Origin: Escherichia phage vB_EcoS_AVIO78A
Length of the DNA stretch: 57,811 bases
Sequence record: MZ726797.1
Reading direction: 5' to 3' (one strand)
The position numbers and the translations under genes are program-made. Below are positions 912 to 47,838 of the stretch, piece after piece; position 1 is the first letter of the stretch; every line of letters starts with the position of its first letter. Below the pieces are notes generated by a model. The model saw only the letters and a program-made list of their open reading frames with translations, was not told where the DNA came from and did not search any database.

Positions 912-1242
912 GCGGTTGTTCCGGCTTAAATCGTGCCGGAAACCGTTTGCGTTTTCGATAAACAGGGTTGAGTGGTGCAAGTGTACTGATAAGGGTATTA
1001 AGCTCGTCAGAGAGCGTTTTAGGTGTGGGAAGATTTGTATTAATGAAACTTTTCGCGTCATCAAGAGTTCTAAAGAAGCCATAATTTTTGTGGTTCATTG
1101 TCACGTTGTATGGGTAATCACAGTTAAAACTTAAAGTCATAAAATAGATCCTGCCAATTTCTTTACCATTCTCAAAAATCGCAAGGTCTTTCGTAAGCAG
1201 TGAACCTGTTCCTAAAGCATATGCTGGTTCAAAAGTTTTCAT
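904..1242 (-). CDS. hypothetical protein
   Basis: ORF track; ATGA overlap with upstream small gene; C-terminus overlaps TerS end. Confidence 0.4.
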   Translation of the reverse strand: MKTFEPAYALGTGSLLTKDLAIFENGKEIGRIYFMTLSFNCDYPYNVTMNHKNYGFFRTLDDAKSFINTNLPTPKTLSDELNTLISTLAPLNPVYRKRKRFPARFKPEQPPI

Positions 1243-1391
1243 TTGAATTCATACTCCACAATACCAAATTCGTTAATAATTTGTGCTTTATAAAAACAAC
1301 CTTTCGATGCCAGTTTATAGGCTTGTTCCATAGTCATTTCACGATATTCAACCATTGAGTTTTCTGTTTCTAATATCATCAGTGTAACCAT
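1239..1391 (-). CDS. small hypothetical protein (~50 aa)
   Basis: ATG with GAGGAA RBS just downstream of promoter at 1450; stop overlaps next start (ATGA); below ORF-track size cutoff. Confidence 0.4.
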   Translation of the reverse strand: MVTLMILETENSMVEYREMTMEQAYKLASKGCFYKAQIINEFGIVEYEFK

Positions 1392-1426
1392 TTTCCTGTT
1401 CCTCACAATTCGTTGTCTATGTGAGT

Positions 1427-1470
1427 AATTTACACGTCCTTGTGTAATCCGTCAAGAATTATTTTAAATA
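1427..1470 (-). promoter_or_regulatory. conserved sigma70-like promoter (UP element AAAATAATTC, -35 TTGACG, 17 bp spacer, -10 TAAATT)
   Basis: member of 14-copy motif family; correct distance upstream of a minus-strand gene. Confidence 0.6.
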
Positions 1471-1491
1471 AAACCCCGGAACTAACCGGGG
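1461..1491 (-). terminator. intrinsic terminator (minus strand)
   Basis: hairpin CCCCGG-AACTAA-CCGGGG followed by T-rich tract on minus strand, directly after stop of 1501..1836. Confidence 0.5.
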
Positions 1492-1500
1492 AAATGTTCA

Positions 1501-1836
1501 TTATTCGCCCAACGCTTCTTTCAACAACCGATACGTTTCAGGACATTTGCCGGATCCGCGTTCACGTTCATAAGCTGCACTAATAGCGTCCCAGTTTTCA
1601 ATCACCCCTTTAAACGCCGGACACTTTTCAGCAATCAATGGAAAACTGTTTCTGATTTCTGGCACAGCTTCAACCAGGAACCAACAACGACGGAAATCGG
1701 CAACATCCCGTGGTGCATGAAATCCCCAATCACCACCCATTTCATTACCTGTGTGAATACACACCATCGTTTTAGAACTCAGTCCCGTTTCACCAGAACA
1801 TAACCACTGAATAATACGTTCCTGTTCTGTTTTCAT
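1501..1836 (-). CDS. hypothetical protein
   Basis: ORF track; stop/start overlap with rdgC-like gene. Confidence 0.5.
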
Positions 1837-2747
1837 CGTTTAGCTTCCCCACCCAAAGCAGTGATAAGTTGTTTGATCAGCGCTGAAAGTTCACCTGTCA
1901 TTAGTACAAAATCAGCGTCAAATCGTGCCAGAACATCTTCAAGGTCAATATCGTCATTCTGTCCGATCAGTTCATCACAGAACTTCACACGGTTTAATGT
2001 CATGCTGTCAGTTAGCGTAAACGTTACCCGCTGCTGCCAGTCCAGAGCCAGCTTTGTAACGACTTTCCCTGCTTCAATATGTGTGGCTATTTCATCACTG
2101 GTTAAATCCTGTTTTTTAACGCGTGCAACACCACCATCAGCCAGGATCGCTTTCAGTTCAGCAGCGTCACCCATTGTGAAACCTGTTGGCGCGTTTCCTG
2201 AACGTACCCACTCCGTTGTTGTCAGTTCAACAGGGTTTTCAGTTGTCAGTGGGACTACAGGCAGACTACCCAGGGATTTACGTAACAGCGCTAACGCATC
2301 TTCAGCCCGTTTAGCACTGGGCGCATCAACCACAATCAACCCGTTAGTGATGTCGATCCACAACTGTGTACGACTGTTTTTAACGAACGCCCGTGGTAAC
2401 AGACTGTGCAACACTTCATCTTTCAGCGCGTCTTTCTCTGTTTTCTTCAGCTTACGCGCCTGTTCAGCTTCCAGTTTGGCGATTCGCGCGTTCAGATGCT
2501 GTTTAATGACCGGACCCGGAATAATCTTTTCCTGTTTCTGGATGGTCAGCAGATATTGCCCGTTAGCCTGGTGAACCAGTGTCCGATGTTGTTCAGTTGC
2601 CGGAACCCATCCAGTACGCGCCATATCCTGTGAACCACATGGATTGAATTGAAACGCACACAAGCTGTCTTCCAGCGTTGGCAACTGGGCCATTAATTGC
2701 ATCGGGTTAGTCAGACGATAAATGATTGCATTTTTAAAGAAGTTCAT
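1833..2747 (-). CDS. rdgC: recombination-associated protein RdgC homolog
   Basis: near full-length similarity to enterobacterial RdgC, e.g. [55 protein letters not shown]. Confidence 0.85.
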
Positions 2748-2941
2748 AGTTCAATGTCCTGTGGTTTGATAGTAACTTTTCCGTCAAGAACAACAGTGTT
2801 TACACCACTTAGTTTTTGTTCTTCGTATAAATCAAGTTCAACATTAATTCCGACGATTGAGGCTTCGTGTATCGCACAGTTTAACTGTTTAATGAGGTCT
2901 GAAATTCTACGCTGATAATCTTGTGCTTCTGATAGTTTCAT
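2744..2941 (-). CDS. hypothetical protein
   Basis: ORF track; overlapping stop/start with neighbours. Confidence 0.45.
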
Positions 2942-3135
2942 ACACCACCTTCATTTTTAATATATTCAGCAACTAAATCTTTGACTTCTACAATTTTAAC
3001 AGCACCGTTATAATCAACCTGAATATGACAGTGACCATAACGCGCCGCTGTTAACCTGGCGTCGTTCAGTATTTTTAAATCTTTCAATACTTGTTCAATT
3101 GCTTGTTGTTTAATCACAGATTCGTGCACAGTCAT
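2938..3135 (-). CDS. hypothetical protein
   Basis: ORF track; ATGA overlap with upstream small gene. Confidence 0.45.
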   Translation of the reverse strand: MTVHESVIKQQAIEQVLKDLKILNDARLTAARYGHCHIQVDYNGAVKIVEVKDLVAEYIKNEGGV

Positions 3136-3287
3136 TTCCGGTTCCTTCTTTTCTTCGCCTCACGTCGGGCTTTTGCAATACCTGTTTTACGATGTGGTTG
3201 TTTACGATCAGTAATAATTCCTTGTGGTGGAACGCCCCACAAAGCGTTAGCGGAACCTAATAATTTAATCGCGTAATCAAGAATCAT
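3132..3287 (-). CDS. small basic hypothetical protein (~51 aa)
   Basis: ATG start, ATGA overlaps at both ends; lysine/arginine-rich C-terminus. Confidence 0.35.
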   Translation of the reverse strand: MILDYAIKLLGSANALWGVPPQGIITDRKQPHRKTGIAKARREAKKRRNRK

Positions 3288-3550
3288 ACGTTCACCACTT
3301 TTAAATCAGGTGAAAGGCTACGATGGTCGTGATGACCGTTCGTAGTAAATGAGAAAGTGTAATCGCATTGTTCACCATCGAACGTGAAGGGGATTTGAAA
3401 CCCTGTATCGTCAGTGATGCGAACTTTAACCGGGTATTCAGCTTGCGGATCGACTGCTACAACAGTGCCGAACGGTTTAGATTTGCGACGTGCGAGAATT
3501 TCTAACAGTCGTGGACTGGTGATTTCCACGTGTTGACCAGTTTTAAACAT
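3284..3550 (-). CDS. hypothetical protein
   Basis: ORF 3284..3577 trimmed to ATG 3550 (GGAG RBS, downstream of promoter -10). Confidence 0.5.
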   Translation of the reverse strand: MFKTGQHVEITSPRLLEILARRKSKPFGTVVAVDPQAEYPVKVRITDDTGFQIPFTFDGEQCDYTFSFTTNGHHDHRSLSPDLKVVNV

Positions 3551-3582
3551 GGTGATAACTCCAGTTGTTTTACACAAACTGA

Positions 3583-3626
3583 AGTCTATCTGATAATGTG
3601 TAAACCGTCAAGAATTATTTTAAACT
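3583..3626 (-). promoter_or_regulatory. conserved promoter (-35 TTGACG, -10 TAGACT); lies inside the 3-prime end of upstream ORF
   Basis: motif family member. Confidence 0.55.
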
Positions 3627-3792
3627 GTCCATCACTGTCTGCAGCGTAACAAATACCGTGATTGTAGATTGTCGCAGTTCGTGTAATGCGTTGATAGTCT
3701 GAGCATTGGTTACGAACACGCAGGTCATACCCGGATTGTATGATTAGCCAGGTTGCAATAATGGCGAGTAATTTTAAAACGTATCTGAACAT
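3586..3792 (-). CDS. hypothetical protein with hydrophobic N-terminus (possible signal/TM)
   Basis: ORF track trimmed to ATG 3792. Confidence 0.4.
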   Translation of the reverse strand: MFRYVLKLLAIIATWLIIQSGYDLRVRNQCSDYQRITRTATIYNHGICYAADSDGQFKIILDGLHIIR

Positions 3793-3863
3793 GTTCCGCA
3801 CTCCTGTTTGATAGTTTCAGGGTAGTGCGGAACTGGCGAAGATGGTATAGGATTTACGATAAT

Positions 3864-4259
3864 TTAACAGAGGTTTCGGCTGGCGTAAAACTTTGTACCG
3901 ACTGGCATACGTTCCATGTTGAGTTTTCCACGCAGGTATTTGTATGTTTCACCGGGAGAACGTAGTTCTGCGTCACACGGTCTTTCAACAATTTCACCCA
4001 CGGGATCACCTAACGCGCCTTTCCATCCTTCCCACATTGCAGTCATAGTGATAAACCAGACACTACCTAAACTGGCTTTCTTATTCTCCCAGAACCAGTC
4101 GATGAACTCTATCGACATCCCATGCTGTTTTGCAATTTCGTAACGGTCATCCACGCTTTCAACCCTCCACCCATGTTTAGCACGATTCATAGCGGTCCGT
4201 TCATCATTCGTGGTGAACAGTACGCGCCCGGATTTATGACAAATGTTCCAAGTCGTCAT
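3864..4259 (-). CDS. hypothetical protein
   Basis: ORF track. Confidence 0.5.
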   Translation of the reverse strand: MTTWNICHKSGRVLFTTNDERTAMNRAKHGWRVESVDDRYEIAKQHGMSIEFIDWFWENKKASLGSVWFITMTAMWEGWKGALGDPVGEIVERPCDAELRSPGETYKYLRGKLNMERMPVGTKFYASRNLC

Positions 4260-4311
4260 TTCGCTAATACACCAATAATGAAAATTAGCATGTAGAATAA
4301 AACATTACGGG

Positions 4312-4470
4312 TCATAATTCATAAACCTTAAAACTACCGCCTGAATAGCGATGTTTATTACACAACTTACAACGGTGTTCCTGAGTGGCGTAATTACGTT
4401 CATCACCGTGGGTAGTACGATATAAATACCATTCGTGTTTACAGAATAATCGTTTGAGAAATATCTTCAT
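4312..4470 (-). CDS. small Cys/His-containing protein (possible zinc ribbon, ~52 aa)
   Basis: ATG with strong GAGGAGGGG RBS; CxxH...CxxC spacing; below ORF-track cutoff. Confidence 0.45.
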   Translation of the reverse strand: MKIFLKRLFCKHEWYLYRTTHGDERNYATQEHRCKLCNKHRYSGGSFKVYEL

Positions 4471-4473
4471 AGT

Positions 4474-4668
4474 TCAATAACCCCTCCTCGACTGGTAATC
4501 AATTTTCTTCAGTGATTGTTGCACAATCTGCCAGGACGATAACATGAATAATTGCGCGTATTGCCCCAGTGCTAAATTTCGTGGTTTATCCTGATAAGCG
4601 TAAATCGTCGCAACATCATCAGCTTCCAGACGGATCCGCCACGGTGTCAGAGTTGGTTTATCGCCCAT
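4474..4668 (-). CDS. hypothetical protein
   Basis: ORF 4474..4704 (TTG) trimmed to ATG 4668; overlaps upstream stop. Confidence 0.45.
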   Translation of the reverse strand: MGDKPTLTPWRIRLEADDVATIYAYQDKPRNLALGQYAQLFMLSSWQIVQQSLKKIDYQSRRGY

Positions 4669-4993
4669 GTTCGATGCTCTCCAGTAGTTCACGAATGTTT
4701 TCAATTACACGTTGTTTTGTCTGAGTAGTGACACACACCCCATCAGTGCGACCGAACGTATTCAGGACCGTTTGAAGCATGTAAGTCATAAGTTCAGTAT
4801 TATAAAGTTTTACGAATATTGAAAGATCGCCACCAATTTCAACAGTGTCTACATCATCTTCAAAATATGAAAATGTAGTGTCTTTAAAATGAACACAGTA
4901 AACGGCATTTTGCCCGTATTCAGGTTGTGCATTACGTTCAAGACGAACGGTAAGAACTTCTTTAAATAATCCGTTGTGGTCTTTAATTTTCAT
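4658..4993 (-). CDS. hypothetical protein
   Basis: ORF 4658..5038 trimmed to ATG 4993 with AGGAG RBS. Confidence 0.5.
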   Translation of the reverse strand: MKIKDHNGLFKEVLTVRLERNAQPEYGQNAVYCVHFKDTTFSYFEDDVDTVEIGGDLSIFVKLYNTELMTYMLQTVLNTFGRTDGVCVTTQTKQRVIENIRELLESIEHGR

Positions 4994-5025
4994 ACCTGTG
5001 TTACTCCTGTTCAATTGATGATCAG

Positions 5026-5069
5026 AGTCTGACACCACCTCTGTAATCTGTCAAGAATTATTTTAAACC
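5026..5069 (-). promoter_or_regulatory. conserved promoter (-35 TTGACA, weak -10)
   Basis: motif family member upstream of the 4993 gene. Confidence 0.5.
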
Positions 5070-5130
5070 TCTGTTACCACCTGTCACCCGTGGTAAACTG
5101 TACAGAACAGTTACAAACGGACCGACAATC

Positions 5131-6894
5131 ATGAATAAGTTTACTGGAAATATTCATAATTACCCGCGTTGGCGGGATGCTTACGCAAACGACGAACGTA
5201 TCTGGCGAAAAGGTCAGCCACGCCCGGATTACAAACAGTGTTACATTGACCGTATTAACCTGTTAAATCGTATGCGCACGGATCGGGCAATTGTCCCGGT
5301 ACTGAAAAAGTATTACGAAACAAACCCGGTAGCGTTTATCCTCGACTGGGCGTTTACTTACGACCCGCGTAACGTCGGTACTGAATATCCACCCAACATG
5401 CCTTTCTGCCTTTTTGAACGTCAAATCGACATGGTTCAGTTTGTTTACGAAGCGCTTGAAGATAAAGAGAAAGGGCTTTGGGAAAAATCGCGAGATTACG
5501 GTGCAACCTGGGTAGCCTGTGGCTTGTCCGTGTGGGCGTGGCTGTATCGTCCTGGTTCTTCAGTTGGCTGGGGATCACGTAAAGAACAGCTTGTTGATAA
5601 ACTGGGCGACCCGGATAGTATTTTTGAAAAGATTCGCCAGATTATTCGCGCATTACCACCAGAATTACGCCCTGTTGGTCTGCGTGAAAAAGACCATCTG
5701 GTTTATATGAAATGTATCAACCCTGAAAACGGTGCGACAATTACTGGTGAAGCTGGTGACAACATTGGTCGTGGTGGTCGTAAATCTGTTTACTTTCTCG
5801 ACGAAGCGGCACACGTAGATCGTCCTGAACTGATCGAAGCGTCGTTGTCAGCTAACACCAACGTCCGTATTGATATCAGTTCGGTTAATGGCGTTGGTAA
5901 CGTTTTTTATCGTAATCGTAAAGCTGGTCTGGAGTGGGAACCGGGCAAAAAATTACCTCGTGGTAAATTGCGTGTTATGGTTCTGGACTGGCGCGATCAC
6001 CCAGCTAAAGATGACGAATGGTATAAGCGAGAAAAACAATCTTTCGCTGAAAAAGGTTTACAGCATATTTTCGCACAGGAAGTTGACCGCGATTATGCCG
6101 CTGCTGTTCAGGGCGTGTTGATTAAAGCTGAATGGGTACGCGCTGCTTTTGATGCTTTCCGTGACACAGAATGGCGCAAAGCTAATGGACTACTTACACC
6201 AACAGGTCAACGTATCGCCGGACAGGACGCAGCAGACGGTGGTGAAGATGCCAGTGCGCTGGTAATTGCTCACGGTGTATTCCTGACACATCTGCAACTT
6301 GACCACAGGGGCGCTGAACTGGCTGCACCAGGAATGTTGACTATGGCTAATATGCTGGGTGTTGATGAATACTGGTACGAAGTTAACGGTGTTGGTACAG
6401 GCGTTAAAGTAGCGGCAAATGACCGAAAAGATACTTTACGCTTCCGTGTGCGTCCGTGGTTACCGAATGGAAAAGTTGTGGATCCGGGCGGTGATATTAT
6501 CGGTGGTACGAAACCTGGCGATAAAGACCGTAAATCAAACAAAGATTATTTCTCAAATTATAAAGCACAGGCATCGTGGGCGTTACGCTTGCGTTGTCAG
6601 CGAATTTATAAATGGTATGTGGAAGGTCAACCACAGGATCCAGACGAAATCATTCTGATTGATCCATCACTGGAAAATGCACAACGGTTAGAAGCTGAGT
6701 TAAGTCAGCCAACGTATACAAGTAACGGTGCCGGGAAGATTGTGATCGACAAAAAACCAAATGGAAGTAAGTCGCCAAACTTTTTCGATGCTGCGGTTAT
6801 TGCACTATCACCAAAACGTACCGAATTCGTTGAAGAACCGTTTACTGGCGGTGTGAATCCTGTTGGTACTCCTGAATATGGTGACATTTTTTAA
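5131..6894 (+). CDS. terminase large subunit
   Basis: 587 aa following TerS-like gene; ATPase-like segment KSRDYGATW and acidic FLDEAAH motif; followed by terminator. Confidence 0.75.
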   Translation: MNKFTGNIHNYPRWRDAYANDERIWRKGQPRPDYKQCYIDRINLLNRMRTDRAIVPVLKKYYETNPVAFILDWAFTYDPRNVGTEYPPNMPFCLFERQIDMVQFVYEALEDKEKGLWEKSRDYGATWVACGLSVWAWLYRPGSSVGWGSRKEQLVDKLGDPDSIFEKIRQIIRALPPELRPVGLREKDHLVYMKCINPENGATITGEAGDNIGRGGRKSVYFLDEAAHVDRPELIEASLSANTNVRIDISSVNGVGNVFYRNRKAGLEWEPGKKLPRGKLRVMVLDWRDHPAKDDEWYKREKQSFAEKGLQHIFAQEVDRDYAAAVQGVLIKAEWVRAAFDAFRDTEWRKANGLLTPTGQRIAGQDAADGGEDASALVIAHGVFLTHLQLDHRGAELAAPGMLTMANMLGVDEYWYEVNGVGTGVKVAANDRKDTLRFRVRPWLPNGKVVDPGGDIIGGTKPGDKDRKSNKDYFSNYKAQASWALRLRCQRIYKWYVEGQPQDPDEIILIDPSLENAQRLEAELSQPTYTSNGAGKIVIDKKPNGSKSPNFFDAAVIALSPKRTEFVEEPFTGGVNPVGTPEYGDIF

Positions 6895-6901
6895 ACAGTG
6901 T

Positions 6902-6931
6902 GGCGGGAATATTCCCGCCCGTTTTCTTTTT
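6902..6931 (+). terminator. intrinsic terminator after terminase gene
   Basis: GGCGGGAATATTCCCGCC hairpin plus T-rich tract. Confidence 0.65.
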
Positions 6932-6968
6932 AATTCTTGACAAATTACATTATAAATGTTTGTAAATT
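6922..6968 (+). promoter_or_regulatory. candidate promoter of accessory operon (UP-like, -35 TTGACA, -10 uncertain)
   Basis: resembles the conserved promoter family but spacer to a good -10 is atypical. Confidence 0.35.
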
Positions 6969-7055
6969 ATCTGTTAGATTAATGTAACACGTCTATACTC
7001 CTGTAGGTAACCAATCGGTTACAGTTAATTAACATTCTCTCACAGGAGTTTCAAC

Positions 7056-7160
7056 ATGTCTGACATGACTTTAGTTCCCACTGGCGGTTTCGGCGGTGAA
7101 GCTGGCGCGGCTGCACTTGGCGGTGGTATCGGTGGTCTTATCGGTTCCTGGTCGCGGTAA
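7056..7160 (+). CDS. short Gly-rich ORF (34 aa) overlapping start of next gene; possible leader or frameshift partner
   Basis: ATG with AGGAG RBS at correct spacing; translation MSDMTLVPTGGFGGEAGAAALGGGIGGLIGSWSR. Confidence 0.35.
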   Translation: MSDMTLVPTGGFGGEAGAAALGGGIGGLIGSWSR

Positions 7161-7713
7161 CTTTGGTGGTCCTGTAGAAGTTCAAGCCTCTGTAGATACC
7201 AACGCTATTCTGCAAGCTATCAATAACGGTACTCTTCAGACCATTCAGGGTCAGAATGGTACTAACCTGACTGTTGAACGCTCAGCAGCTTCTACCTATA
7301 ACGGTCTGACCCAACAGAACACACAAAACCTGCTGGCAAACGTTCAAGGTTTTGCAGGTCTGAACACGCAGATTCAACAGGGTACTAACACTGTGACCAA
7401 TGCGATCTGTGCATCTGAAACTGCGGCACTGACTCGTTCTTTCCAGGCACAGTTAGCGGCTGAGAAGTGTTGCTGCGAAACCAACCTGAATATCGAACGT
7501 CAGGCAGAAGCAACTCGTGCACTGATCCGTGACCAGTTCGCACAGTCTCAGGCTGTTCTGATTTGTGACCTGAAATCTCAGATTCAAACGCGTGACTTCC
7601 AGTTGTCTCAATTGTCACAAACGTCTCAGTTGGCGTGCAAAATTAACCAGGTCGATCAGCTTATTAACTTCAAGCTGCCTACTCCGCAAACTCCACCGAC
7701 TGGCTGCTGCTAA
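7096..7713 (+). CDS. Gln/Asn/Thr-rich Cys-containing protein with signal-peptide-like N-terminus
   Basis: ORF track (GTG start, no internal Met); N-terminus KLARLHLAVVSVVLSV; C-terminal GCC; start ambiguous. Confidence 0.45.
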   Translation: MKLARLHLAVVSVVLSVPGRGNFGGPVEVQASVDTNAILQAINNGTLQTIQGQNGTNLTVERSAASTYNGLTQQNTQNLLANVQGFAGLNTQIQQGTNTVTNAICASETAALTRSFQAQLAAEKCCCETNLNIERQAEATRALIRDQFAQSQAVLICDLKSQIQTRDFQLSQLSQTSQLACKINQVDQLINFKLPTPQTPPTGCC

Positions 7714-7763
7714 TTGGTCAACTAAGCGCCTCTGTACGGGGCGCTTTAACAGGAGATAAGAGT

Positions 7764-8123
7764 ATGCATTACAAACCGTATTACGTTATCAAAAAAGACG
7801 ATGATGACGATGAAGAGGAAGATGTAGAAATTCATCACCATCATCATTATCACCACGGGCATCACCCGGACACGACGGGAGTATTTCATCATGATAGCTA
7901 TGCTGGCGAACATGGTTCAGTTATGGCCCATGTTAAAGCACGTATGGATAACCCTCCTTCGACTTGGGCGTCGTACCACGATAAGCCCGGCGGGATGATG
8001 TCCATTGTTGAAATGGAATATCGCGAACTGATGGAAGAAAAAGCCGAAGGTTCGACGTCTGGTATTAAAAAAGAGCTAACGGATCTGGCTGCAGCCTGTA
8101 TCAACGCGCTTAAAAAGATGTAA
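7764..8123 (+). CDS. Asp/Glu- and His-rich protein (possible metal-binding)
   Basis: ATG with AGGAGA RBS; DDDDDEEEDVEIHHHHHYHHGHH tract. Confidence 0.55.
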   Translation: MHYKPYYVIKKDDDDDEEEDVEIHHHHHYHHGHHPDTTGVFHHDSYAGEHGSVMAHVKARMDNPPSTWASYHDKPGGMMSIVEMEYRELMEEKAEGSTSGIKKELTDLAAACINALKKM

Positions 8124-8139
8124 CTAACAGGAAACCGAC

Positions 8140-8637: not shown

Positions 8638-8878
8638 AGGGGTAGACAAAGTAGTCGAAAGTCTGGGGTTACGAGCACACGTAATCGTAGACGAAGGTCA
8701 CAGTCAAGAAGCGATCATGAAGTCGGCATTTAACGATTTTAAAGCGTTGGGTTCTATGAGCGGGATCATGGCAGTGATGACTACCGGGAAATTAAGTCAG
8801 CAACAGTTAGATCTGGCACAACGTATCGCTGTGAAAGTAATTGCCGTTTTAGGTCTTAAAGAGTCAGAAAAAGCGTAA
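8624..8878 (+). CDS. hypothetical protein
   Basis: ORF track; overlaps previous gene end. Confidence 0.5.
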   Translation: MTKNEGVDKVVESLGLRAHVIVDEGHSQEAIMKSAFNDFKALGSMSGIMAVMTTGKLSQQQLDLAQRIAVKVIAVLGLKESEKA

Positions 8879-8892
8879 AAAAGGTGATTATT

Positions 8893-9057
8893 ATGTGTTG
8901 TAGAACATCGTGTTGTCTGGGAAGTCCTGCTACGCAATTTGGTCTTCTTCAATCACAGATTGCACATACTCAGGTCGTTTTCAGAGGGTTTACCAGTCCG
9001 TTCATAGTACCATTACAGTTTTCCGCGTTCACGTTTAGACCTTTTGTATTTTACTGA
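8893..9057 (+). CDS. candidate small Cys-rich peptide (54 aa)
   Basis: ATG 7 nt after AAGGTGA; MCCRTSCCLG N-terminus; ends before terminator; may instead be untranslated. Confidence 0.25.
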   Translation: MCCRTSCCLGSPATQFGLLQSQIAHTQVVFRGFTSPFIVPLQFSAFTFRPFVFY

Positions 9058-18689: not shown

Positions 18690-18960
18690 TACAGTTAATA
18701 CAGAACGTGTACTAACTGTACATGGTTTTACATAGGTTTCATGATTTTGAGTTGCAGCTAATACAGAACGTGTATTAGTAGATCATAGATTCATAGATCA
18801 CGTCATGTTTATTTTTTAACCGATCCTTCTCTATCTTATTCTTTTTATTATCTTTTTATAGATAACATAGAAAACATAAATAAATAGAAGAGTAGTATAA
18901 GTAGTAAAAGTTGCTGCAAGTAGGAGAGGTTTAAAAGGTATAGAGAGTCGCATACTTCCC
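18690..18960. repeat. non-coding AT-rich region with direct repeats (TAATACAGAACGTGTAYTA x2) and a ~95 bp element also present at 57715..57811
   Basis: direct comparison of 18801..18905 with 57715..57811. Confidence 0.6.
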
Positions 18961-18969
18961 ATGAATCTA

Positions 18970-21473: not shown

Positions 21474-21476
21474 CCG

Positions 21477-26523: not shown

Positions 26524-26542
26524 CATGGTGGATGGTAGTTTT

Positions 26543-26568
26543 GCCCCGGACAGTTCCGGGGCTTTTTT
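26543..26568 (+). terminator. intrinsic terminator (identical hairpin to 9066)
   Basis: GCCCCGGACAGTTCCGGGGC plus T6. Confidence 0.7.
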
Positions 26569-26569
26569 G

Positions 26570-26737
26570 TTAGCGTTTGGCGAGATAGTCACAACGGGCG
26601 ATTGCTAAATCTGCAGTCTTGTACGAAGACTCACTTGTTGAATGGGTTGTTCCAATAACCATTACATGATATCCGTCTTTGTTTTTTAGAACCCAAAACT
26701 TACCGTTTTCATGAATAATATTTTTCTCTTTGGTCAT
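26570..26737 (-). CDS. small hypothetical protein (55 aa) inserted between major tail and chaperone genes
   Basis: ATG with GAGGATAA RBS about 25 nt downstream of conserved promoter; MTKEKNIIHENGKFW. Confidence 0.45.
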   Translation of the reverse strand: MTKEKNIIHENGKFWVLKNKDGYHVMVIGTTHSTSESSYKTADLAIARCDYLAKR

Positions 26738-26768
26738 CGTCTTATCCTCAGTTCGTTTCGTTGAGTTA

Positions 26769-26812
26769 AAGATACCTTAACAGGTGCAATTCGTCAAGAA
26801 TTATTTTAAATC
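26769..26812 (-). promoter_or_regulatory. conserved promoter (-35 TTGACG, -10 TATCTT)
   Basis: motif family member. Confidence 0.55.
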
Positions 26813-26874
26813 TCTTGCGTAATTTGTACAGAACTATTATTATATAATCGTCTACTACATAAAAGGTAAAAACC

Positions 26875-37235: not shown

Positions 37236-37245
37236 GATAACAATC

Positions 37246-39879: not shown

Positions 39880-39918
39880 TGTTATCGCCTCAATAAGTTT
39901 TAAATAATTCTATACGGT

Positions 39919-41775
39919 TTACCGAAGTGGTGCAACGAGTTTTTCAGCTTCTTTGATGTAAAAATCATAATTTAGCGTTGCCCGGTTAAAACGTTTCATG
40001 TCGTTGCACTCCGTGGTCAACCAACCTTTGCACACTGACATACGGCGCTCAGGCGCGTCAGGGTTCAGTTTCAGTGATTTTGCCAGTGGTGGCATGACTT
40101 TTGTCAACGGTGCACCATCTGTACTGACGTAATAACGGGTAATGTTCTGAACCTGTTTATCACCCCATAATAACTTGCTGTTACGCGGTACTTTCGTCAC
40201 CAACATAAAATCGTGAATGTCTTCGTGTGATGTTATAAAATCACGAATGTCTTTATTGTGTACCAGTGCTGCTTCAGCAGCTTTTGCGACAACCTGCATA
40301 CTGTGGTTTTGATGCCAACCCAGATCAACACTGTGACAATAAGCGCCTTTACGTTTAACCTTCTTACCACCTTCGTAAACAGCGATATAATTATTTACAT
40401 CGCGAATAAACATCACGTCATAAATCGCTTCTTCAAGCTGGAGTCTGGTTAATTTTTCCCACGCGTGACGAACCTGTTCTACTTGTTCGGTAAACACTCG
40501 TGGCACGTAAACCGTAAGACCATCTGTGTTAGCCTGGATCATGGACAAACCAGGGATTTTCAGAAGTTCTTCAGCCAACATACACAAAAGTAATTGTCCG
40601 TTAATCGTAATAGCCATTGTATAAGCAGGATCGTAGAACGGGCTGTATACGTTATTACTGTCACCATACACACCGTTTAACGCTAGTTTTAACATTGCAT
40701 TTTCTGGTGTACCTTTCGGGTAACTGGAACGCATGTCATAAACATTTTTATAAATGGTGCAAAATTGTTTACCCAGATGTGCTGGATAAAGTTCATTACT
40801 GATCGCAAGGTTCGGGTAAAAACTGGCAACGTCCAGATCGATGATCACATAATTTTCAGTGGACCTGATAGTTTGAGACTCAATAGACCCGTGGATACCA
40901 CCCGTACCAAAATCAAACGAGAACCCGTTAATGTCTGCGCTTAAATCCGTGAATACACCTTTTGTTTCAGTGATGACCTGTTGGCGTAACCAGTTAAGAA
41001 CACGATTAAATTCAGGCTGTTCAAAACGGACATAAGGGAAAATCACACTGTTCAATGCGATTGACGGTCTGTGCGTCTGTCGTGGTTTTCTACTACCCGG
41101 TTCGAAACATTGAATACCTGATTTTTCAAGTTCCATAATGAAATAGTCTTTACCGATTTTCGTGTCATTATGGTTCATGAAATTACGACCGTATTTAGCA
41201 GAAAGTTCACGACGAAAATCTATCAGCTTTTTACTGTGTTTATAAAACATCAAAGTCGCTTTTAAATCGTGTATCAGATATTGACGAAGCGTATCAATTT
41301 GAGAATCGGTTAAATAAGTCCCTGGCGTAAATGGGAGGTCTTCAATGTTTTCCATTCTCATGTTGAATTCAAGTGTTTTCAGACTTGTTCGTTTTGCCTG
41401 ATTGTCGAAATGATGAATTTTATATAAATCAAGCTGGGGAACTATCCAGTCTTTTTCCCACACCATATGAGCAAAACGATTTTCATCACCAGCGTTAATT
41501 ATCGAATCACCTTTTTTATAAATGTCTGCGTTGGTGATATACATGATATTGTTCAAAATAGAATGCTGAACAGGATAGTCGTAACCCAGATTGTTATAAC
41601 CAACTTCTTCATCACGATGTTCACGTAAATATTCTGTGAACAGGTAAAAAGCCTGACGATCATCGCGACGATGTGAAATCTCAAAAATATAAGGTGTTTC
41701 AGTTAACGCGTGAATAGCACCGAACAGAAAAACATTAGGATAGTTTTCAATATCGTGAACGTAAGCATCTGACAT
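39919..41775 (-). CDS. DNA polymerase (compact, family-B-like motifs)
   Basis: DLDVASFYPN (motif A-like), KLALNGVYGDS (motif B-like), ANTDGL (motif C-like), N-terminal DxE and YxxxD exonuclease-like motifs. Confidence 0.55.
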   Translation of the reverse strand: MSDAYVHDIENYPNVFLFGAIHALTETPYIFEISHRRDDRQAFYLFTEYLREHRDEEVGYNNLGYDYPVQHSILNNIMYITNADIYKKGDSIINAGDENRFAHMVWEKDWIVPQLDLYKIHHFDNQAKRTSLKTLEFNMRMENIEDLPFTPGTYLTDSQIDTLRQYLIHDLKATLMFYKHSKKLIDFRRELSAKYGRNFMNHNDTKIGKDYFIMELEKSGIQCFEPGSRKPRQTHRPSIALNSVIFPYVRFEQPEFNRVLNWLRQQVITETKGVFTDLSADINGFSFDFGTGGIHGSIESQTIRSTENYVIIDLDVASFYPNLAISNELYPAHLGKQFCTIYKNVYDMRSSYPKGTPENAMLKLALNGVYGDSNNVYSPFYDPAYTMAITINGQLLLCMLAEELLKIPGLSMIQANTDGLTVYVPRVFTEQVEQVRHAWEKLTRLQLEEAIYDVMFIRDVNNYIAVYEGGKKVKRKGAYCHSVDLGWHQNHSMQVVAKAAEAALVHNKDIRDFITSHEDIHDFMLVTKVPRNSKLLWGDKQVQNITRYYVSTDGAPLTKVMPPLAKSLKLNPDAPERRMSVCKGWLTTECNDMKRFNRATLNYDFYIKEAEKLVAPLR

Positions 41776-41855
41776 AATAAAATCCTGATAAGTAAATGGG
41801 GCACTATGGCCCCATGTCTGTTTAAAGCGGTATGTCGTCCCAGTTCCAGTAACTA

Positions 41856-42887
41856 TCAGTAACCGTTACCGTTGAGAAAATTCGGGGCCGGGGTGGTCAT
41901 TACCATATAACCGTTAGCGATCAGTTGTTCATCGTTCCAACCTTGCGCAATAAACTGTTCGTAAGTTGCACCACCTGCTTTTTCAGTCATTACTTTTACA
42001 GGTGCTGCCGCTGGTGTAGGCGTTGCTACAGGTGCTGCCGCTGGTGTAGGCGTTGCTACAGGTGCTGCCGCTGGTGTAGGCGTTGCTACAGGTGCTGCCG
42101 CTGGTGTAGGCGCTGCTACAGGTGCTGCCGCTGGTGTAGGCGTTGCTACAGGTGCTGCCGCTGGTGTAGGCGTTGCTACAGGTGCTGCCGCTGGTGTAGG
42201 CGTTGCTACAGGTGCTGCCGCTGGTGTAGGCGCTGCTACAGGTGCTGCCGCTGGTGTAGGCGCTGCTACAGGTGCTGCCGCTGGTGTTACGCCGATCGGA
42301 CGTGCACCTTCAGGCATTGCAGGAGCAGCACCGAACACAGATGCAGGAGCCGGACCAGAAATGATTTCTTCACCCGCATAAAGCAATTGCGCCATTTCCA
42401 TGTTGATATATACGCCAGCCTGATTACCTGTACGACCGTTTGCAACAGATGATCCGCTGATACGGTAGTAATAACCTTTTTTCGCCAGATTTTTATCAAT
42501 AACTGGCTGGTACGCTGCGTTATAAACCGGACACGCATCAATAGCCACGTTGCGTGAGAAACCAATTACCCAGTGACCAGCATAACCAGTTTTACTCGCA
42601 TGTTTCGGATCGTCACCGTTAATAATTTTCCATGCGAAAGTGGGTTGTTGTGGTTCGCCGTTCACATAGTGTGAGTTAGCCACTCGCATAATCGCCTGGA
42701 ATACCGCACCCAGTTCACCTTGTTCTTCCCACCAGTTCGCCGCTGTTTTAGGAAACGCCAGGCCAACCCACCAGTTGTGTTTTTCAGGTGCTAACGGTTT
42801 ATTTTCGTGGTCATGAGTGTTGATATCGAAAAAAGAACCGCCAACCAGACGACCAACCGGAGTTACAAAAGATTCTTTCTGTGCCAT
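41856..42887 (-). CDS. ssDNA-binding protein-like (DUF2815-like N-domain) with Pro/Ala repeat linker and conserved C-terminal motif
   Basis: VGRL...FPK pattern; PAAAPVA[TA]PT x ~9.5; C-terminal TYEQFIAQGWNDEQL. Confidence 0.5.
   Translation of the reverse strand: MAQKESFVTPVGRLVGGSFFDINTHDHENKPLAPEKHNWWVGLAFPKTAANWWEEQGELGAVFQAIMRVANSHYVNGEPQQPTFAWKIINGDDPKHASKTGYAGHWVIGFSRNVAIDACPVYNAAYQPVIDKNLAKKGYYYRISGSSVANGRTGNQAGVYINMEMAQLLYAGEEIISGPAPASVFGAAPAMPEGARPIGVTPAAAPVAAPTPAAAPVAAPTPAAAPVATPTPAAAPVATPTPAAAPVATPTPAAAPVAAPTPAAAPVATPTPAAAPVATPTPAAAPVATPTPAAAPVKVMTEKAGGATYEQFIAQGWNDEQLIANGYMVMTTPAPNFLNGNGY
41996..42288. repeat. tandem 30-bp repeat (~9.5 copies) encoding the Pro/Ala linker
   Basis: GGTGCTGCCGCTGGTGTAGGCG[T/C]TGCTACA repeated contiguously. 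Confidence 0.9.
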
Positions 42888-42902
42888 GTTATTAACCTTC
42901 TT

Positions 42903-44048
42903 TTAAAGTGGACGTGCGCCAGTCGGCATCGTCACGGGTTTGTTAAAAACAGATTCTGCCAGTGTGCTGTGACCTTTACGCGGGTCACTGTCAGGTACTA
43001 AAACTGGCTGACCTTCTGGTTTTGTCGTACACATGTCAACAAGTGCCGGAGGCAGTGATTTTTCCAGTGTTGACAACGGTTTTAATTTACGTTCGTACAA
43101 TGTTTCAGGGTTTACACCAAACATGGGTGCAGCACCGATCAGTTTTCCTTCGTCCGTAAGCTGACGTCGGGTTTGCTTTGTTGCAAGTTTAAAACCCGGT
43201 AAAGCCTTACCCATGCGAACAAAATGTAACCCCTGAGTATGTAACGCTGTTTTTGCTTCAGAAGAACGCGTATACAGTTCTTCAAGAAGTGCCAGACGAC
43301 GCGCTACTTCTTCTGGCGTAAGTGATGGTGGTGCATCAAGAACAGTAGCCAATTCTAAAACCCTCTCATACATCGCCGGACACATACCACGCGCCGGACA
43401 GTAATGACAATGACTACCAACATTTAACGGTGCGTCTGGTTTATGTGCTTCGTTAAACCCGTGTTTAAATCGTTCAGCCCATTCCATCAATGTTGTCCGG
43501 TTAAACTCCCACCGTCTTACAAGTCCGAGTGGGTGATAAGCCCGTGGCTGAACAATTGTGAACACAACGCGCTTAACAGTATCAATACAACGTTGGTCCA
43601 GTGCGTAATAGACCCCCTGTGAATTATCAACTGCTTCAACTGCGATATGACCGTATTTATAATCCCATACGTAAAGCGTATCAGTATTAAAATCATACCA
43701 GCGATAATCACAGGTTCCGTACTGACCGGGTAACAACCAGTCAATGTGAATGCGAACTTCTGAAAACAGCGGATCAAGTTTCGCACCAACTGAAAGAACA
43801 TCTGCTATAAAGTCATCCGCGTAAATATGCATGTCTTCAGTAACCTGAACACCGTTAGGAGCAAGACACGGCATTAATGGCGGTTTGCCTTTAATCTTCT
43901 GTTCTAACACCCAGTGCCCGGCTGTACCTTCTTCAGCACTGGGTGATGATGGTTCTACATAGTCAATCCGCTGTGACAGTTGAACGCTACCCGGACAAGC
44001 TAACCAACGTTTTGATCCACTGGCACTAAAGGTAGCGTGACTGGTCAT
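42903..44048 (-). CDS. PD-(D/E)XK-type nuclease (DUF2800/Cas4-like, putative)
   Basis: N-terminal SASGSKRWLACPGS pattern; C-terminal Cys cluster; adjacent to SSB-like gene. Confidence 0.5.
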   Translation of the reverse strand: MTSHATFSASGSKRWLACPGSVQLSQRIDYVEPSSPSAEEGTAGHWVLEQKIKGKPPLMPCLAPNGVQVTEDMHIYADDFIADVLSVGAKLDPLFSEVRIHIDWLLPGQYGTCDYRWYDFNTDTLYVWDYKYGHIAVEAVDNSQGVYYALDQRCIDTVKRVVFTIVQPRAYHPLGLVRRWEFNRTTLMEWAERFKHGFNEAHKPDAPLNVGSHCHYCPARGMCPAMYERVLELATVLDAPPSLTPEEVARRLALLEELYTRSSEAKTALHTQGLHFVRMGKALPGFKLATKQTRRQLTDEGKLIGAAPMFGVNPETLYERKLKPLSTLEKSLPPALVDMCTTKPEGQPVLVPDSDPRKGHSTLAESVFNKPVTMPTGARPL

Positions 44049-44800
44049 CAGAATGCTCCACCCATTTGTTTAACAGATTCAGCCTGACCAACAATGTTTT
44101 CAGCATCAGCCGGGGCCGCGTTAATGCGTTCAATCAGTTCGATGATAGATTTCAGTTTTACCGGGTCGTCAATCTGCATCACGTTCTGAGTTTCATACAG
44201 TCCCATGATTCGCTGACTTAATGGCGCAGCACGGTCACCCGTAATTTGTCCAAACATCTGCATCAGTGCTGACTGAAGAACCTGTGTGTTATAAACTTTA
44301 GCCGGATCCGTGGTTACAGGTTGCTCGACAGGCGCGACTGGTGCAGCCGGTGCTGCTGGTACAACTGGAGCTACCGGAGCGGCAGGAACCGCTGGAGCAG
44401 GATCAACAGGTGCTACATAACCTGGTGCAAGTTCTGCAGGTCCGGTATAACGCCCTGCTTCAACTGCTTCAGCGATAAGTTCACGTTTAACACCGTCAAC
44501 AAACGCTTCATCCAGTTTTTTCTTTTGACGCCACAGACCATCACCTTTGTTCAGGGATTTACTGTCAGTGTGGATACGCGGATCATGACGCAAACCCCAT
44601 TTGTCGAACTCTTCAGTACTGGTTTCGTTATCGTCAACATCTTCAGTTGGTGCAGATACAACAGGCAGTGATTCAGCAACGACAGAAACAATTTCTTCTT
44701 TCGTAATCGGTGCGACACTGTTACCAGCAATCGCTGCTGCCAGATTGTTGATCGCAGTTTCCAGACCCGGAGCAGTTACAAGTAATTTAACTTCGAACAT
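44048..44800 (-). CDS. hypothetical protein with Pro/Ala-rich linker
   Basis: ORF track; first gene after tandem promoters. Confidence 0.5.
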   Translation of the reverse strand: MFEVKLLVTAPGLETAINNLAAAIAGNSVAPITKEEIVSVVAESLPVVSAPTEDVDDNETSTEEFDKWGLRHDPRIHTDSKSLNKGDGLWRQKKKLDEAFVDGVKRELIAEAVEAGRYTGPAELAPGYVAPVDPAPAVPAAPVAPVVPAAPAAPVAPVEQPVTTDPAKVYNTQVLQSALMQMFGQITGDRAAPLSQRIMGLYETQNVMQIDDPVKLKSIIELIERINAAPADAENIVGQAESVKQMGGAF

Positions 44801-44832
44801 TACGTTTTCCTCTTGTTGTTTGGTTGTCGCTA

Positions 44833-44876
44833 ACTTTAAAAGGTGTTGTGCAATCTGTCAAGAATTATTTTACACT
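44833..44876 (-). promoter_or_regulatory. conserved promoter (-35 TTGACA, -10 TAAAGT), proximal of tandem pair
   Basis: motif family member. Confidence 0.6.
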
Positions 44877-44894
44877 CGCCTTTCGTTGATGCAG

Positions 44895-44939
44895 ATGTTA
44901 GAGGAATAAGTTGCAATGCGTCAAGAACTATTTTAAACT
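44895..44939 (-). promoter_or_regulatory. conserved promoter (-35 TTGACG, -10 TAACAT), distal of tandem pair
   Basis: motif family member. Confidence 0.55.
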
Positions 44940-44970
44940 TTTTTCACGATTCGATATTACAGGGTAGAAA

Positions 44971-46632
44971 ATGAAAGCTCGTTATTATCAGACTGAAGCT
45001 ATCAATAACGTATGTCAGGCATGGTCAAGCGGTGCTGACGACGTGATTCTTGTGCTTCCCACGGGGGCAGGAAAAACGTTCTGTATGTCTGAACTGGTAA
45101 AAACAAGAGACGGTGTAAAAGTCATCCAGGCACACCGTAAAGAACTGGTTAGTCAAATCGCAATGGCTGTTGCTCGCCAGGGGTTAGCACACAGATTTAT
45201 AGCGCAAAAAGATACTGTTAAGTTTGCAACTAATCAGCAGATGAAAACGCTTGGTTACAGTACCTATTCCCCCGGTGCTGACATCGTTATTACCAGTTCA
45301 CAAACGTTAAGAACAAAACAGTACGAACGATGGTACAACGACGTGTCTCTTGTGTTTAGCGACGAAGCGCATCACCTGGTGCGTGGCACACAGTGGGGAG
45401 ACTGCCGGGAAAAATTCCCTAACGCTAAAGGTCTGGGTGTTACAGCTACACCGATCCGTGCTGACGGTAAAGGCTTGGGTCGTCATGCGTCAGGTTACGC
45501 AGATCAGATGATCATTGGTCCGTCAATGCGTGAGTTAATCAGTCAACAACATCTGGCCGATTATCGTCTGATTATGGCTGAAACAGACCTGGAATTAACT
45601 GCAGAAATGATTTCCCATACAACGGGTGATTACAAACCATCTGCGTTAAAAAAAGCGATGGAAGATTCAAACATTGTTGGTGATACCGTCAGTACGTGGA
45701 AAACGTACGCAGACGGTTTGCTCACTGTTGTGTTTACGTGTGATGTGGATTCTGCTGAAGCACTGGCACAAGAATTTCGCGATGCGGGTATTCCAGCAGA
45801 GGCGATCAGCTCACGAAACAGCAATCAGGAACGAGCGGATATCCTGGAACGTTTTGAACGACGTAAAACACTCGTGCTGTGTAACAACGATTTATTCGGT
45901 GAAGGATACGATTGTCCGGCAATGGAATGTGCAGTAATGGACCGTCCCACAGAATCTTACTCTTTGTTTGTACAACAAATGGGTCGACCATTGCGTTTCA
46001 AACCGGGTAAAAAAGCACTGATTATTGATAAAGTCGGTAATGTTCGTCGATTTCTGACCCGTGGTTTTCCACTTCCCGATCAGCATTACAACTGGTCTTT
46101 AGATGACCGCGACCGTCGTTCGTCAAACAGCAGTGGGAACAGTAATACAACATGCACAAACAAGGGTGATCCTGATAACGGTATCCCACCGTGTCTGAAG
46201 CCTTATCCGTCTGGTCTTCCGTGCTGCCCGTATTGTGGTCATGTTCCTGAAAAAGCCGAACGCTCAGGCCCGGATCGTGTAGAAGGTAATTTACGTGAAC
46301 TGACACCTGAAGAACTGGAAGAATTACGCCGGGCAGTTGTGATAATCGACCGTGATCCTGTTGCAGTAAAAGAACAAATGTTAAACGCTGGTGCACCCCC
46401 TGTTGCAGCTTACAGTGCAATGAAAAACATTCAGGCAATGAACGATGCACAGCGTAAGTTACGCAGCATGATCACCACATGGGCAGGTATTCAACGTGAT
46501 AAAGGTATACCCGTTGATGACGCTTACAAGATGTTTTACAGGGTGTTTGGTGTTGATGTACTTAGTGCACAGGGCTTACGTACTCGTGAAGCTAATGAAC
46601 TCGCCGCAAGGGTTGCAAGTTCATTAATCTGA
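44971..46632 (+). CDS. superfamily 2 helicase with internal zinc ribbon
   Basis: Walker A PTGAGKT, DEAH-like FSDEAHH, CCPYCGH. Confidence 0.7.
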   Translation: MKARYYQTEAINNVCQAWSSGADDVILVLPTGAGKTFCMSELVKTRDGVKVIQAHRKELVSQIAMAVARQGLAHRFIAQKDTVKFATNQQMKTLGYSTYSPGADIVITSSQTLRTKQYERWYNDVSLVFSDEAHHLVRGTQWGDCREKFPNAKGLGVTATPIRADGKGLGRHASGYADQMIIGPSMRELISQQHLADYRLIMAETDLELTAEMISHTTGDYKPSALKKAMEDSNIVGDTVSTWKTYADGLLTVVFTCDVDSAEALAQEFRDAGIPAEAISSRNSNQERADILERFERRKTLVLCNNDLFGEGYDCPAMECAVMDRPTESYSLFVQQMGRPLRFKPGKKALIIDKVGNVRRFLTRGFPLPDQHYNWSLDDRDRRSSNSSGNSNTTCTNKGDPDNGIPPCLKPYPSGLPCCPYCGHVPEKAERSGPDRVEGNLRELTPEELEELRRAVVIIDRDPVAVKEQMLNAGAPPVAAYSAMKNIQAMNDAQRKLRSMITTWAGIQRDKGIPVDDAYKMFYRVFGVDVLSAQGLRTREANELAARVASSLI

Positions 46633-46673
46633 TGGTAATCTGCATAGAAATATTTTAAACGTAAGGAACTGTA

Positions 46674-47180
46674 ATGCGTGATTTGATGGTTGACATTGAA
46701 ACGTGTGGTACTAAACCGGGTTGTGCAGTGCTGTCAATTGGCGCTGTTTATTTTGATCGTCAGGGTAATATTGGTGAAACGTTTTACGCATCAATGGGTT
46801 TTAATGCACTTGCTTATGGTCACACGGACCCTGACACTATGAAGTGGTGGTCGCAGCAGTCAGAACAAGCACAAAAAGATGCTTTTGGTGGTACTGCCGA
46901 TCCTGTTCAGGTTGCTAAAGATTTTGCCAAATTCATCTGGCACGATGCTAAACCGTGGGGAAATGGTTGCACATTCGATATCACTATTCTGGAAGCATGG
47001 TTTAATGCTGTTGGGGTTCGTTGCCCGTGGAAGTTCTGGAATGTTCGTGATGTTCGTACAGCTGTTGATTTGCTGGGTATTAACCCGAAAGAATTTACCC
47101 GTGACGGTACTTACCACAACGCGTTAGACGACTGTTTACACCAGATTAAACATCTTACTAGTGGGACTAAAACATTATGA
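46674..47180 (+). CDS. DEDD-family 3-prime-5-prime exonuclease (DnaQ-like)
   Basis: N-terminal MVDIETCG (Exo I-like), C-terminal HNALDD. Confidence 0.6.
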   Translation: MRDLMVDIETCGTKPGCAVLSIGAVYFDRQGNIGETFYASMGFNALAYGHTDPDTMKWWSQQSEQAQKDAFGGTADPVQVAKDFAKFIWHDAKPWGNGCTFDITILEAWFNAVGVRCPWKFWNVRDVRTAVDLLGINPKEFTRDGTYHNALDDCLHQIKHLTSGTKTL

Positions 47181-47668
47181 CAACGCTTGAACAATGGGCG
47201 ATTCGTCACGGTATTAGTCAGATGGCGTTGTACGAGTTATACGCGCTTTATCAGCCTGATGGGACACCACACGAAGACGGTGTAAGTGAAAGCGCCACCA
47301 GTAAAGAGTGTGAACTGATTGCGGCACGTTCCGGGCAACGTATCTGGCGTAATAACTCAGGTGCTCTGAAAAACGAAAAAGGAATGATGGTTCGTTATGG
47401 TCTTGGTAACACCAGTGCGAAAATCAACGCTGTTATGAAGTCAAGCGACTACATCGGCATTAAAACCAAAATCGTTACACCGGATATGATCGGTTCGAAA
47501 GTGGGCATCTTTATTGCTGCCGAAATGAAACGCCCTGACTGGCACATGATCCCCAGTGATAAACGTGCACAAGCACAGGCCACTTTCGGTGCGATTGTTG
47601 AAAACGCAGGTGGTGAATTTCGTTTCATCACTCACCCTTCACAATTTGAAAAATGGATTAAACAATGA
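47177..47668 (+). CDS. VRR-NUC-type nuclease (putative)
   Basis: SDYIGI...EMK resembling a PD-(D/E)xK core. Confidence 0.45.
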   Translation: MTTLEQWAIRHGISQMALYELYALYQPDGTPHEDGVSESATSKECELIAARSGQRIWRNNSGALKNEKGMMVRYGLGNTSAKINAVMKSSDYIGIKTKIVTPDMIGSKVGIFIAAEMKRPDWHMIPSDKRAQAQATFGAIVENAGGEFRFITHPSQFEKWIKQ

Positions 47669-47838
47669 ATACTGAACGCATCGAACGTCTGCAAAAACTG
47701 ATTGATAACCACGGTATTGAAGCTGTTGCCAAACGTCTGAACGTTACTGAAATTCATGTTAAACGTAATCTGCTTACCGGGCGATCTGCTATCAACCTGG
47801 TCAAACTGATGGCTGCTGAACGTCAGTTCGGAGCGTAA
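47665..47838 (+). CDS. small helix-turn-helix protein (57 aa)
   Basis: ATGA overlap with previous stop; ends 4 nt before primase start; AVAKRLNVTEIHVKRNL. Confidence 0.5.
   Translation: MNTERIERLQKLIDNHGIEAVAKRLNVTEIHVKRNLLTGRSAINLVKLMAAERQFGA

Follow-up and report, generated by a model that had tools for sequence, protein, structure and literature searches.

Does an open reading frame (ORF) that falls below a 60-amino-acid (60-aa) cutoff encode a protein, and if so what might that protein do? The question arises in the genome of Escherichia phage vB_EcoS_AVIO78A (AVIO78A; GenBank MZ726797, sequence record MZ726797.1), a 57.8-kb Sashavirus isolated on avian pathogenic Escherichia coli (APEC) O78, the genome of which is complete, published and annotated (PMC10612097). 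The whole stretch of 57,811 nucleotides (nt) is referred to here as the window. An earlier note on this DNA had listed five likely genes below the cutoff, and all five are present exactly as given, each with an ATG start: ORF1 (1239..1391, 50 aa), ORF2 (3132..3287, 51 aa), ORF3 (4312..4470, 52 aa), ORF4 (26570..26737, 55 aa) and ORF5 (47665..47838, 57 aa). Strands had been omitted: ORF1 to ORF4 lie on the minus strand and ORF5 lies on the plus strand. The best overall explanation, held with considerable confidence, is that these are five independent, genuine small protein-coding genes, not one system; for all but ORF1 a function can be tentatively proposed.

Evidence that the five ORFs are genes

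AVIO78A is a virulent 9NA-like siphophage. The records closest to the first 6 kb of the window by megablast are 9NA-like siphophages of the genera Nonanavirus and Sashavirus, with PJ16 at 94.5% identity, followed in order by BDX09P1, PDP46, Bas82, Sergei and 9NA. Against this background the claim that the five ORFs are real genes is borne out by conservation, purifying selection and existing GenBank annotation. Conservation in relatives, which the earlier note had named as a check, was counted by tblastn in phage records: 441 for ORF1, 4 for ORF2, 20 for ORF3, 50 for ORF4 and 29 for ORF5. For selection, the window was aligned to six relatives and two partial loci, and synonymous and non-synonymous differences were counted in all six frames. 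The ratio of the two (pN/pS) is lowest in the gene's own frame for ORF1 (0.27), ORF2 (0.36), ORF3 (0.16) and ORF5 (0.15), and none of these four is interrupted by an in-frame stop codon in the aligned 9NA-like relatives.

The stop/start overlaps that had been noted are real: an ATGA is found at the ORF1 stop (1239-1242), at the start (3284-3287) and stop (3132-3135) of ORF2, and where ORF5 begins (47665-47668). The good ribosome-binding sites (RBS) that had been ascribed to the set are found at ORF1 to ORF4, with spacings of 4-12 nt (GAGG 9 nt upstream of ORF1, GGTGA 4 nt upstream of ORF2, GAGGAGGGG about 10 nt upstream of ORF3 and GAGGA 8 nt upstream of ORF4); ORF5 has just a weak GGA. ORF1 to ORF3 belong to operons of accessory genes that run leftward in the left arm. 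The genes of these operons are chained by ATGA overlaps, and the promoters that serve them, at 1450, 3606 and 5049, are copies of one conserved sequence of sigma-70 type.

The exact proteins of all five are deposited at the National Center for Biotechnology Information (NCBI): ORF1 to ORF4 are AVIO78A_003, AVIO78A_008, AVIO78A_012 and AVIO78A_057, and an exact look-up finds the ORF5 protein to be identical to proteins of Sasha, Sergei and Solent. Relatives also carry annotations of these small genes (PJ16_003, PJ16_009 and PJ16_079; Bas82_0073 and Bas82_0100; PDP46_0011 and PDP46_0078; 9NA gp73). The five do not differ from the annotated hypothetical proteins of AVIO78A and its 9NA-like relatives, being identical or orthologous to them, with the same positions and lengths. 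The implication that these genes had been missed therefore does not hold here: standard phage annotation had called all five, they had entered the database as hypothetical proteins, and their families are known or catalogued in PHROG, so that nothing about their existence is new. 'DNA binding protein', attached to ORF5 in PJ16 and PDP46, is the only functional label in the deposited records.

Searches for recognisable domains yielded little. NCBIfam and PADLOC scans of the five ORFs gave zero matches, and Pfam scans of every member of the ORF2 to ORF5 alignments gave nothing over threshold. Searches of Protein Data Bank (PDB) sequences, with profiles for ORF2 (alignment A1), ORF4 (A2) and ORF5 (A3) and with single sequences for ORF1, ORF3, ORF4 and ORF5, returned nothing, or artefactual matches to designed repeat proteins. 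The word-indexed protein search reached close relatives only. It gave just two matches for ORF3, so the ORF3 alignment was supplemented with translated phage loci from tblastn.

Several considerations weigh against this explanation. The evidence for expression and function of all five is computational throughout, and the functional calls are based on predicted folds and residue patterns because ORF3, ORF4 and ORF5 match no Pfam or NCBIfam family. The basic tail of ORF2 could be a compositional feature and not a binding motif, the strand that encodes ORF4 offers its transcript no canonical terminator, only a hairpin that lacks a U-run, and the Shine-Dalgarno sequence of ORF5 is weak.

ORF4, the tail-module slot and the repeated promoter

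The major tail tube gene and the tail assembly chaperone gene flank ORF4 (26570..26737, minus strand), which lies between them on the opposite strand. Its product belongs to phrog_20712 and is a homologue of SP6 gp1. No orthologue is present in the six 9NA-like genomes compared, and the protein is conserved at 53-77% identity in the 50 phage records of other groups, among them Klebsiella Webervirus, Salmonella SP6 and Cornellvirus, and Ralstonia, Bordetella and Variovorax phages. The homologue is the first gene of SP6 and an early-region gene, gp06, of Webervirus NJS1; in FSL SP-031 it stands alone on the opposite strand, with the head genes on one side and the lysis genes on the other.

According to the earlier note ORF4 has a promoter of its own, and a 20-nt motif is indeed present in exact copy 32 nt upstream of its start. 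This promoter (26769..26811, minus strand) has a -35 hexamer TTGACG (26797..26792), a 17-nt spacer and a -10 hexamer TATCTT (26774..26769). On the left, the slot is bounded by the terminator hairpin of the major tail tube gene (26543..26562, plus strand). Because its T-run is on the plus strand only, the hairpin does not qualify as a canonical terminator of ORF4 transcription.

The slot between the two tail genes measures 351 nt here (26524..26874) and 105 nt in PJ16 (locus L006, 25708..25812), where neither promoter nor cargo is found and the tube terminator is joined directly to TTGCGTAATTTG upstream of the chaperone gene. Other slot intervals compared include L008 21277..21724 and L003 1525..2334. 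Elsewhere the same promoter precedes different cargo: in Bas82, PDP46 and KP13-27 it is followed by an unrelated gene of 87 aa, in Sasha by a gene of 207 aa. The Bas82 cargo, Bas82_0044, has no similarity to ORF4. In 9NA the slot contains no ORF longer than 36 aa, and in three metagenomic contigs it holds a version of ORF4 with 98% identity. ORF4 is a cargo gene acquired horizontally, placed behind a promoter of the backbone in the slot between the tail tube and chaperone genes. A promoter-bounded cargo slot within the tail module is a modest side observation.

Such an arrangement invites comparison with the moron, reportedly defined by Juhala and Hendrix as an extra gene that brings its own promoter and terminator and has been inserted where related phages have two adjoining genes. 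ORF4 is absent from PJ16, in which the genes that flank it here are adjacent; it comes with a promoter of its own and is encoded on the strand opposite that of its neighbours. Unlike a moron, it uses a promoter that is part of the backbone common to most relatives, only the cargo being changed, and the cargo strand lacks a canonical terminator. A further difference is that expression in a prophage state does not apply, because the phage is virulent. ORF4 is structurally a moron-like cargo gene.

Despite its position in the late tail module, ORF4 would be transcribed by the host RNA polymerase from its sigma-70-type promoter. The modelled fold weakly resembles the three-stranded sheet and C-terminal helix with which the AP2/ERF domain and the N-terminal arm-binding domain of lambda integrase bind DNA. 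ORF4 may likewise bind DNA through a three- or four-stranded sheet and a helix, a role that can be inferred only weakly from the predicted structure.

The 20-mer just upstream of ORF4, CGTCAAGAATTATTTTAAAT, occurs in 13 copies in the genome, where 0.02 would be expected. Read in the reverse direction, it comprises an A/T-rich tract, the -35 hexamer TTGACG and a conserved gATTaCA, with a -10-like hexamer 17-18 nt on; the promoter, about 26 nt long and of sigma-70 type, reads TTTAAAATAATTCTTGACG-gATTaCA followed by the -10 hexamer 17-18 nt downstream. The copies are at 1450, 3606, 5049, 11086, 13309, 14915, 18669, 18971(-), 26792, 44856, 44919, 50212(-) and 52177(-), and each of the 13 precedes a gene that is oriented the same way. 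The conserved sequence reaches far past the -35 hexamer, suggestive of an UP element or of a site bound by a regulator.

Could these promoters, together with ORF4, form a mobile cassette system? PeSL promoter-terminator cassettes shuffle genes in T4-type phages (Arbiol et al. 2010, PMC2839356; Comeau et al. 2014, PMC4122927), and a PeSL-like system that shuffles small genes among 9NA-like phages would explain the 13 near-identical copies, the varying cargo of a slot bounded by a terminator hairpin and a conserved promoter, and the promoter copy at 1450 that abuts a terminator hairpin. As in T4-type phages, a sigma-70-like promoter that is strongly conserved recurs many times, in association with small accessory genes that vary among close relatives. 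The homology breakpoints with the six relatives at first appear to agree: of 113 breakpoint clusters, 12 are no more than 60 nt away from a motif, against 2.9 expected at random (p = 0.0005). The excess is gone when the control is drawn from gene ends (7.9 ± 2.7 expected, p = 0.09). An association between motif and breakpoints, significant against random positions but not against gene ends, was consequently not adopted. The analogy also breaks down at the structure that defines PeSL, because only 1 of the 13 promoters, that at 1450, adjoins a terminator hairpin, and the composite unit is not general here. A cassette system of this kind is unlikely.

The other proposal that concerns ORF4 is that at least one of the small proteins, with ORF4 as the best candidate, is an anti-defence or host-takeover factor. 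The earlier note had called the five typical of small phage regulators or anti-defence proteins. Some circumstances are consistent with the latter: ORF4 has its own sigma-70-type promoter inside a late tail module and sits in a slot of variable cargo, its homologue opens the SP6 genome, ahead of an Ocr-like anti-restriction gene, and ORF1, ORF3 and ORF4 are patchily distributed across unrelated phage groups, as is typical for accessory genes. Homology gives the idea no support. None of the five ORFs has a significant match to a characterised defence inhibitor in PDB, Pfam, NCBIfam or PADLOC, and the families to which they belong are without functional annotation. An anti-defence or host-takeover role for any of them is accordingly doubtful. 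The two proposals can be combined into a siphophage counterpart of PeSL, in which the 13 promoters would serve both as transcription signals and as recombination linkers, and ORF4, of the SP6 gp1 family, would be an early host-takeover or counter-defence cargo exchanged through the tail slot; this composite is quite improbable. Five independent genes remain the preferred explanation.

Predicted properties of the other four products

ORF5 (47665..47838, plus strand) is a core gene of the replication operon, the order of which is helicase, exonuclease, nuclease, ORF5 and primase. It is the same gene as 9NA gp73, Bas82_0073 and PDP46_0078. Its start overlaps the upstream nuclease gene in an ATGA, its stop is 3 nt ahead of the primase start codon, and its translation probably relies on translational coupling. 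The earlier description of the product as helix-turn-helix (HTH)-like is supported by the predicted fold, a four-helix bundle of the lambda-repressor type; in the four- or five-helix lambda-repressor-like architecture helices 2 and 3 constitute the HTH, and the ORF5 model shows this arrangement. ORF5 would then be a Cro/XRE-type HTH DNA-binding protein. Most likely, judging from this model and its neighbours, it regulates or assists the coupled replication module by binding an operator or origin beside the primase and helicase genes.

Both the fold and the size (about 57-70 aa) predicted for ORF5 are those of Cro/C1 (XRE) regulators such as Aca10, Xfaso1 Cro and the controller C-proteins. Unlike these, ORF5 is located in a replication operon beside a primase gene, and not beside an anti-CRISPR, repressor or restriction-modification gene. 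A second difference is that it has no sequence match to Pfam HTH families: neither ORF5 nor the 15 other rows of alignment A3 matches HTH_3 or HTH_XRE even at E ≤ 10, and the only hit is to Sigma70_r4 (E 0.12). In the divergent control region at 44780-44990, a search for operator-like inverted repeats found none that is convincing, only the duplicated promoter motif. The homologue in PJ16 (L006 47885..48160) and in some metagenomic relatives (P0011) is 91 aa long because of a 34-residue N-terminal extension, absent here.

ORF3 (AVIO78A_012; 4312..4470, minus strand) encodes a Cys/His mini-protein of phrog_3036. Its homologues are scattered among Klebsiella 9NA-like phages, a Dickeya jumbo phage, the cyanophage Synechococcus phage S-CRM01 and a T5-like Enterobacter phage. 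Across nine sequences of the family, from very distant phages, C10, H12, C34 and C37 are invariant, and so are W14, R18, D23 and E24. On the strength of this pattern ORF3 would be a zinc-binding mini-protein with C10, H12, C34 and C37 as ligands. The term zinc-ribbon-like, which the earlier note had applied to it, is plausible on account of the four invariant Cys/His residues. It is imprecise in that the pattern is C-x-H...C-x2-C, with CxH and not CxxC as the first knuckle, and in that no zinc-finger Pfam match is significant: matches are confined to single members of the family and are sub-threshold, the best being zf-4CXXC_R1 (E 0.0012) and Zn_Ribbon_1 (E 0.33).

ORF1 (AVIO78A_003, exact protein UAW58788.1; 1239..1391, minus strand) is widespread. 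It scores 60.4 bits against Pfam PF23776 (cutoff 27), with residues 1-50 aligned to positions 1-51 of the 52-position model, and matches phrog_4653 with an E-value of 9e-22; a member of its NCBI cluster is named 'DUF7170 family protein'. With a score above the gathering threshold, ORF1 is by sequence a full-length DUF7170 member. The family ranges over Kagunavirus, Klebsiella, T4-like Krischvirus, Aeromonas, Campylobacter and Vibrio phages. No activity can be inferred for it, and none of the papers in the collection searched mentions DUF7170.

ORF1 is driven by a sigma-70-type promoter (1427..1469, minus strand) with an UP-like A/T tract, a -35 hexamer TTGACG (1455..1450), a 17-nt spacer and a -10 hexamer TAAATT (1432..1427). 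The terminator hairpin that abuts it (1470..1497, minus strand; stem-loop 1473..1490) has the form CCCCGG-TTAGTT-CCGGGG followed by TTTT. ORF1 shares its ATGA overlap with the downstream gene at 904..1242. A two-gene module formed by this pair was rejected, because only 3 phage records contain the partner and 441 contain ORF1. The product of 904..1242 (minus strand) has 112 aa, that of its counterpart in PJ16 and KP13-27 only 78 aa. The additional 3' stretch runs into the end of the convergent small terminase gene (159..911) and may reflect a lost stop codon.

ORF2 (AVIO78A_008, exact protein UAW58793.1; 3132..3287, minus strand) is lineage-specific, with eight relatives only among 1.84 billion representative proteins. 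The N-terminal halves of these relatives diverge, and the C-terminal motif KQPHRKTGIAKARREAKKRRNRK is common to them; across the eight, RKTG..R.A.K alone is invariant, at the C-terminus. Through this conserved Arg/Lys-rich tail ORF2 would bind nucleic acid or another polyanion. The motif presumably resembles arginine-rich nucleic-acid-binding peptides, a resemblance that serves as a lead only. In a metagenomic phage contig of 60 kb, the gene for one relative (54% identity) occupies the same place, upstream of rdgC.

Of the five, ORF2 presents the weakest coding case because a 61-aa ORF (3091..3276) overlaps it in antisense. It is highly improbable that some of the ORFs are chance open frames, and ORF2 in particular a shadow of this plus-strand frame: the latter is slightly longer, has an apparent pN/pS of 0.45 against 0.36 for ORF2 and is free of stops in close relatives, but in distant relatives stop codons interrupt it, whereas ORF2 remains open there with its C-terminal motif retained, it would begin with TTG and stand alone on its strand, and ORF2 is co-stranded with all its neighbours, joined to them by ATGA overlaps at both ends and annotated in PJ16, Bas82 and AVIO78A.

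A variant of this locus is seen in an 82-aa metagenomic protein (P0049), in which the N-terminal 45 residues of ORF2 are fused to the C-terminus of the product of 2744..2941 (window 2744..3287, minus strand). The fusion implies a deletion variant that has removed the gene between ORF2 and 2744..2941.

Further small genes in the genome

As a list of small genes the five entries are correct but incomplete, since at least four more genes of less than 60 aa exist. These emerged from a scan of every 25-59 aa ORF outside longer supported genes. The gene at 8893..9057 (plus strand, 54 aa) has a pN/pS of 0.24 and an RBS, AGGTGA; it is the same as 9NA gp15 and Bas82_0006 and is annotated in relatives. 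AVIO78A_022 (9365..9526, minus strand, 53 aa; pN/pS 0.31) is the same as 9NA gp17, its exact protein being UAW58807.1. A GTG-initiated gene of 47 aa at 16000..16143 (plus strand; pN/pS 0.23) corresponds to 9NA gp32, PJ16_035 and Bas82_0024, and its exact protein is present on 416 contigs. AVIO78A_042 (17654..17815, minus strand, 53 aa; exact protein UAW58827.1) has a pN/pS of 0.16 and is the same as Bas82_0029 and PDP46_0037. Two other candidates, at 18831..18962 (minus strand) and 44843..44974 (plus strand), are equivocal.

The value of these results is mainly one of quality control: a 60-aa cutoff hides at least nine real genes of a 57.8-kb phage, or about 9% of its genes, although the usual annotation of phage genomes had picked them up before. 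As targets for a functional screen, ORF5 (an HTH protein coupled to the primase), ORF4 (promoter-driven cargo of the tail module) and ORF1 (the widespread DUF7170) are reasonable yet unremarkable.

A minor point of annotation concerns a few deposited genomes in which homologues of ORF3 or ORF5 have been overlooked or placed on the wrong strand. In KP13-27 an opposite-strand ORF is annotated over the ORF3 homologue (L014 21402..21548, minus strand). In Enterobacter phage KKP_3711 the ORF3 homologue lies unannotated between tRNA genes (L026 ~598..822, plus strand), and the annotation of Morganella phage Henu15 omits the ORF5 homologue (L019 1492..1653, plus strand).

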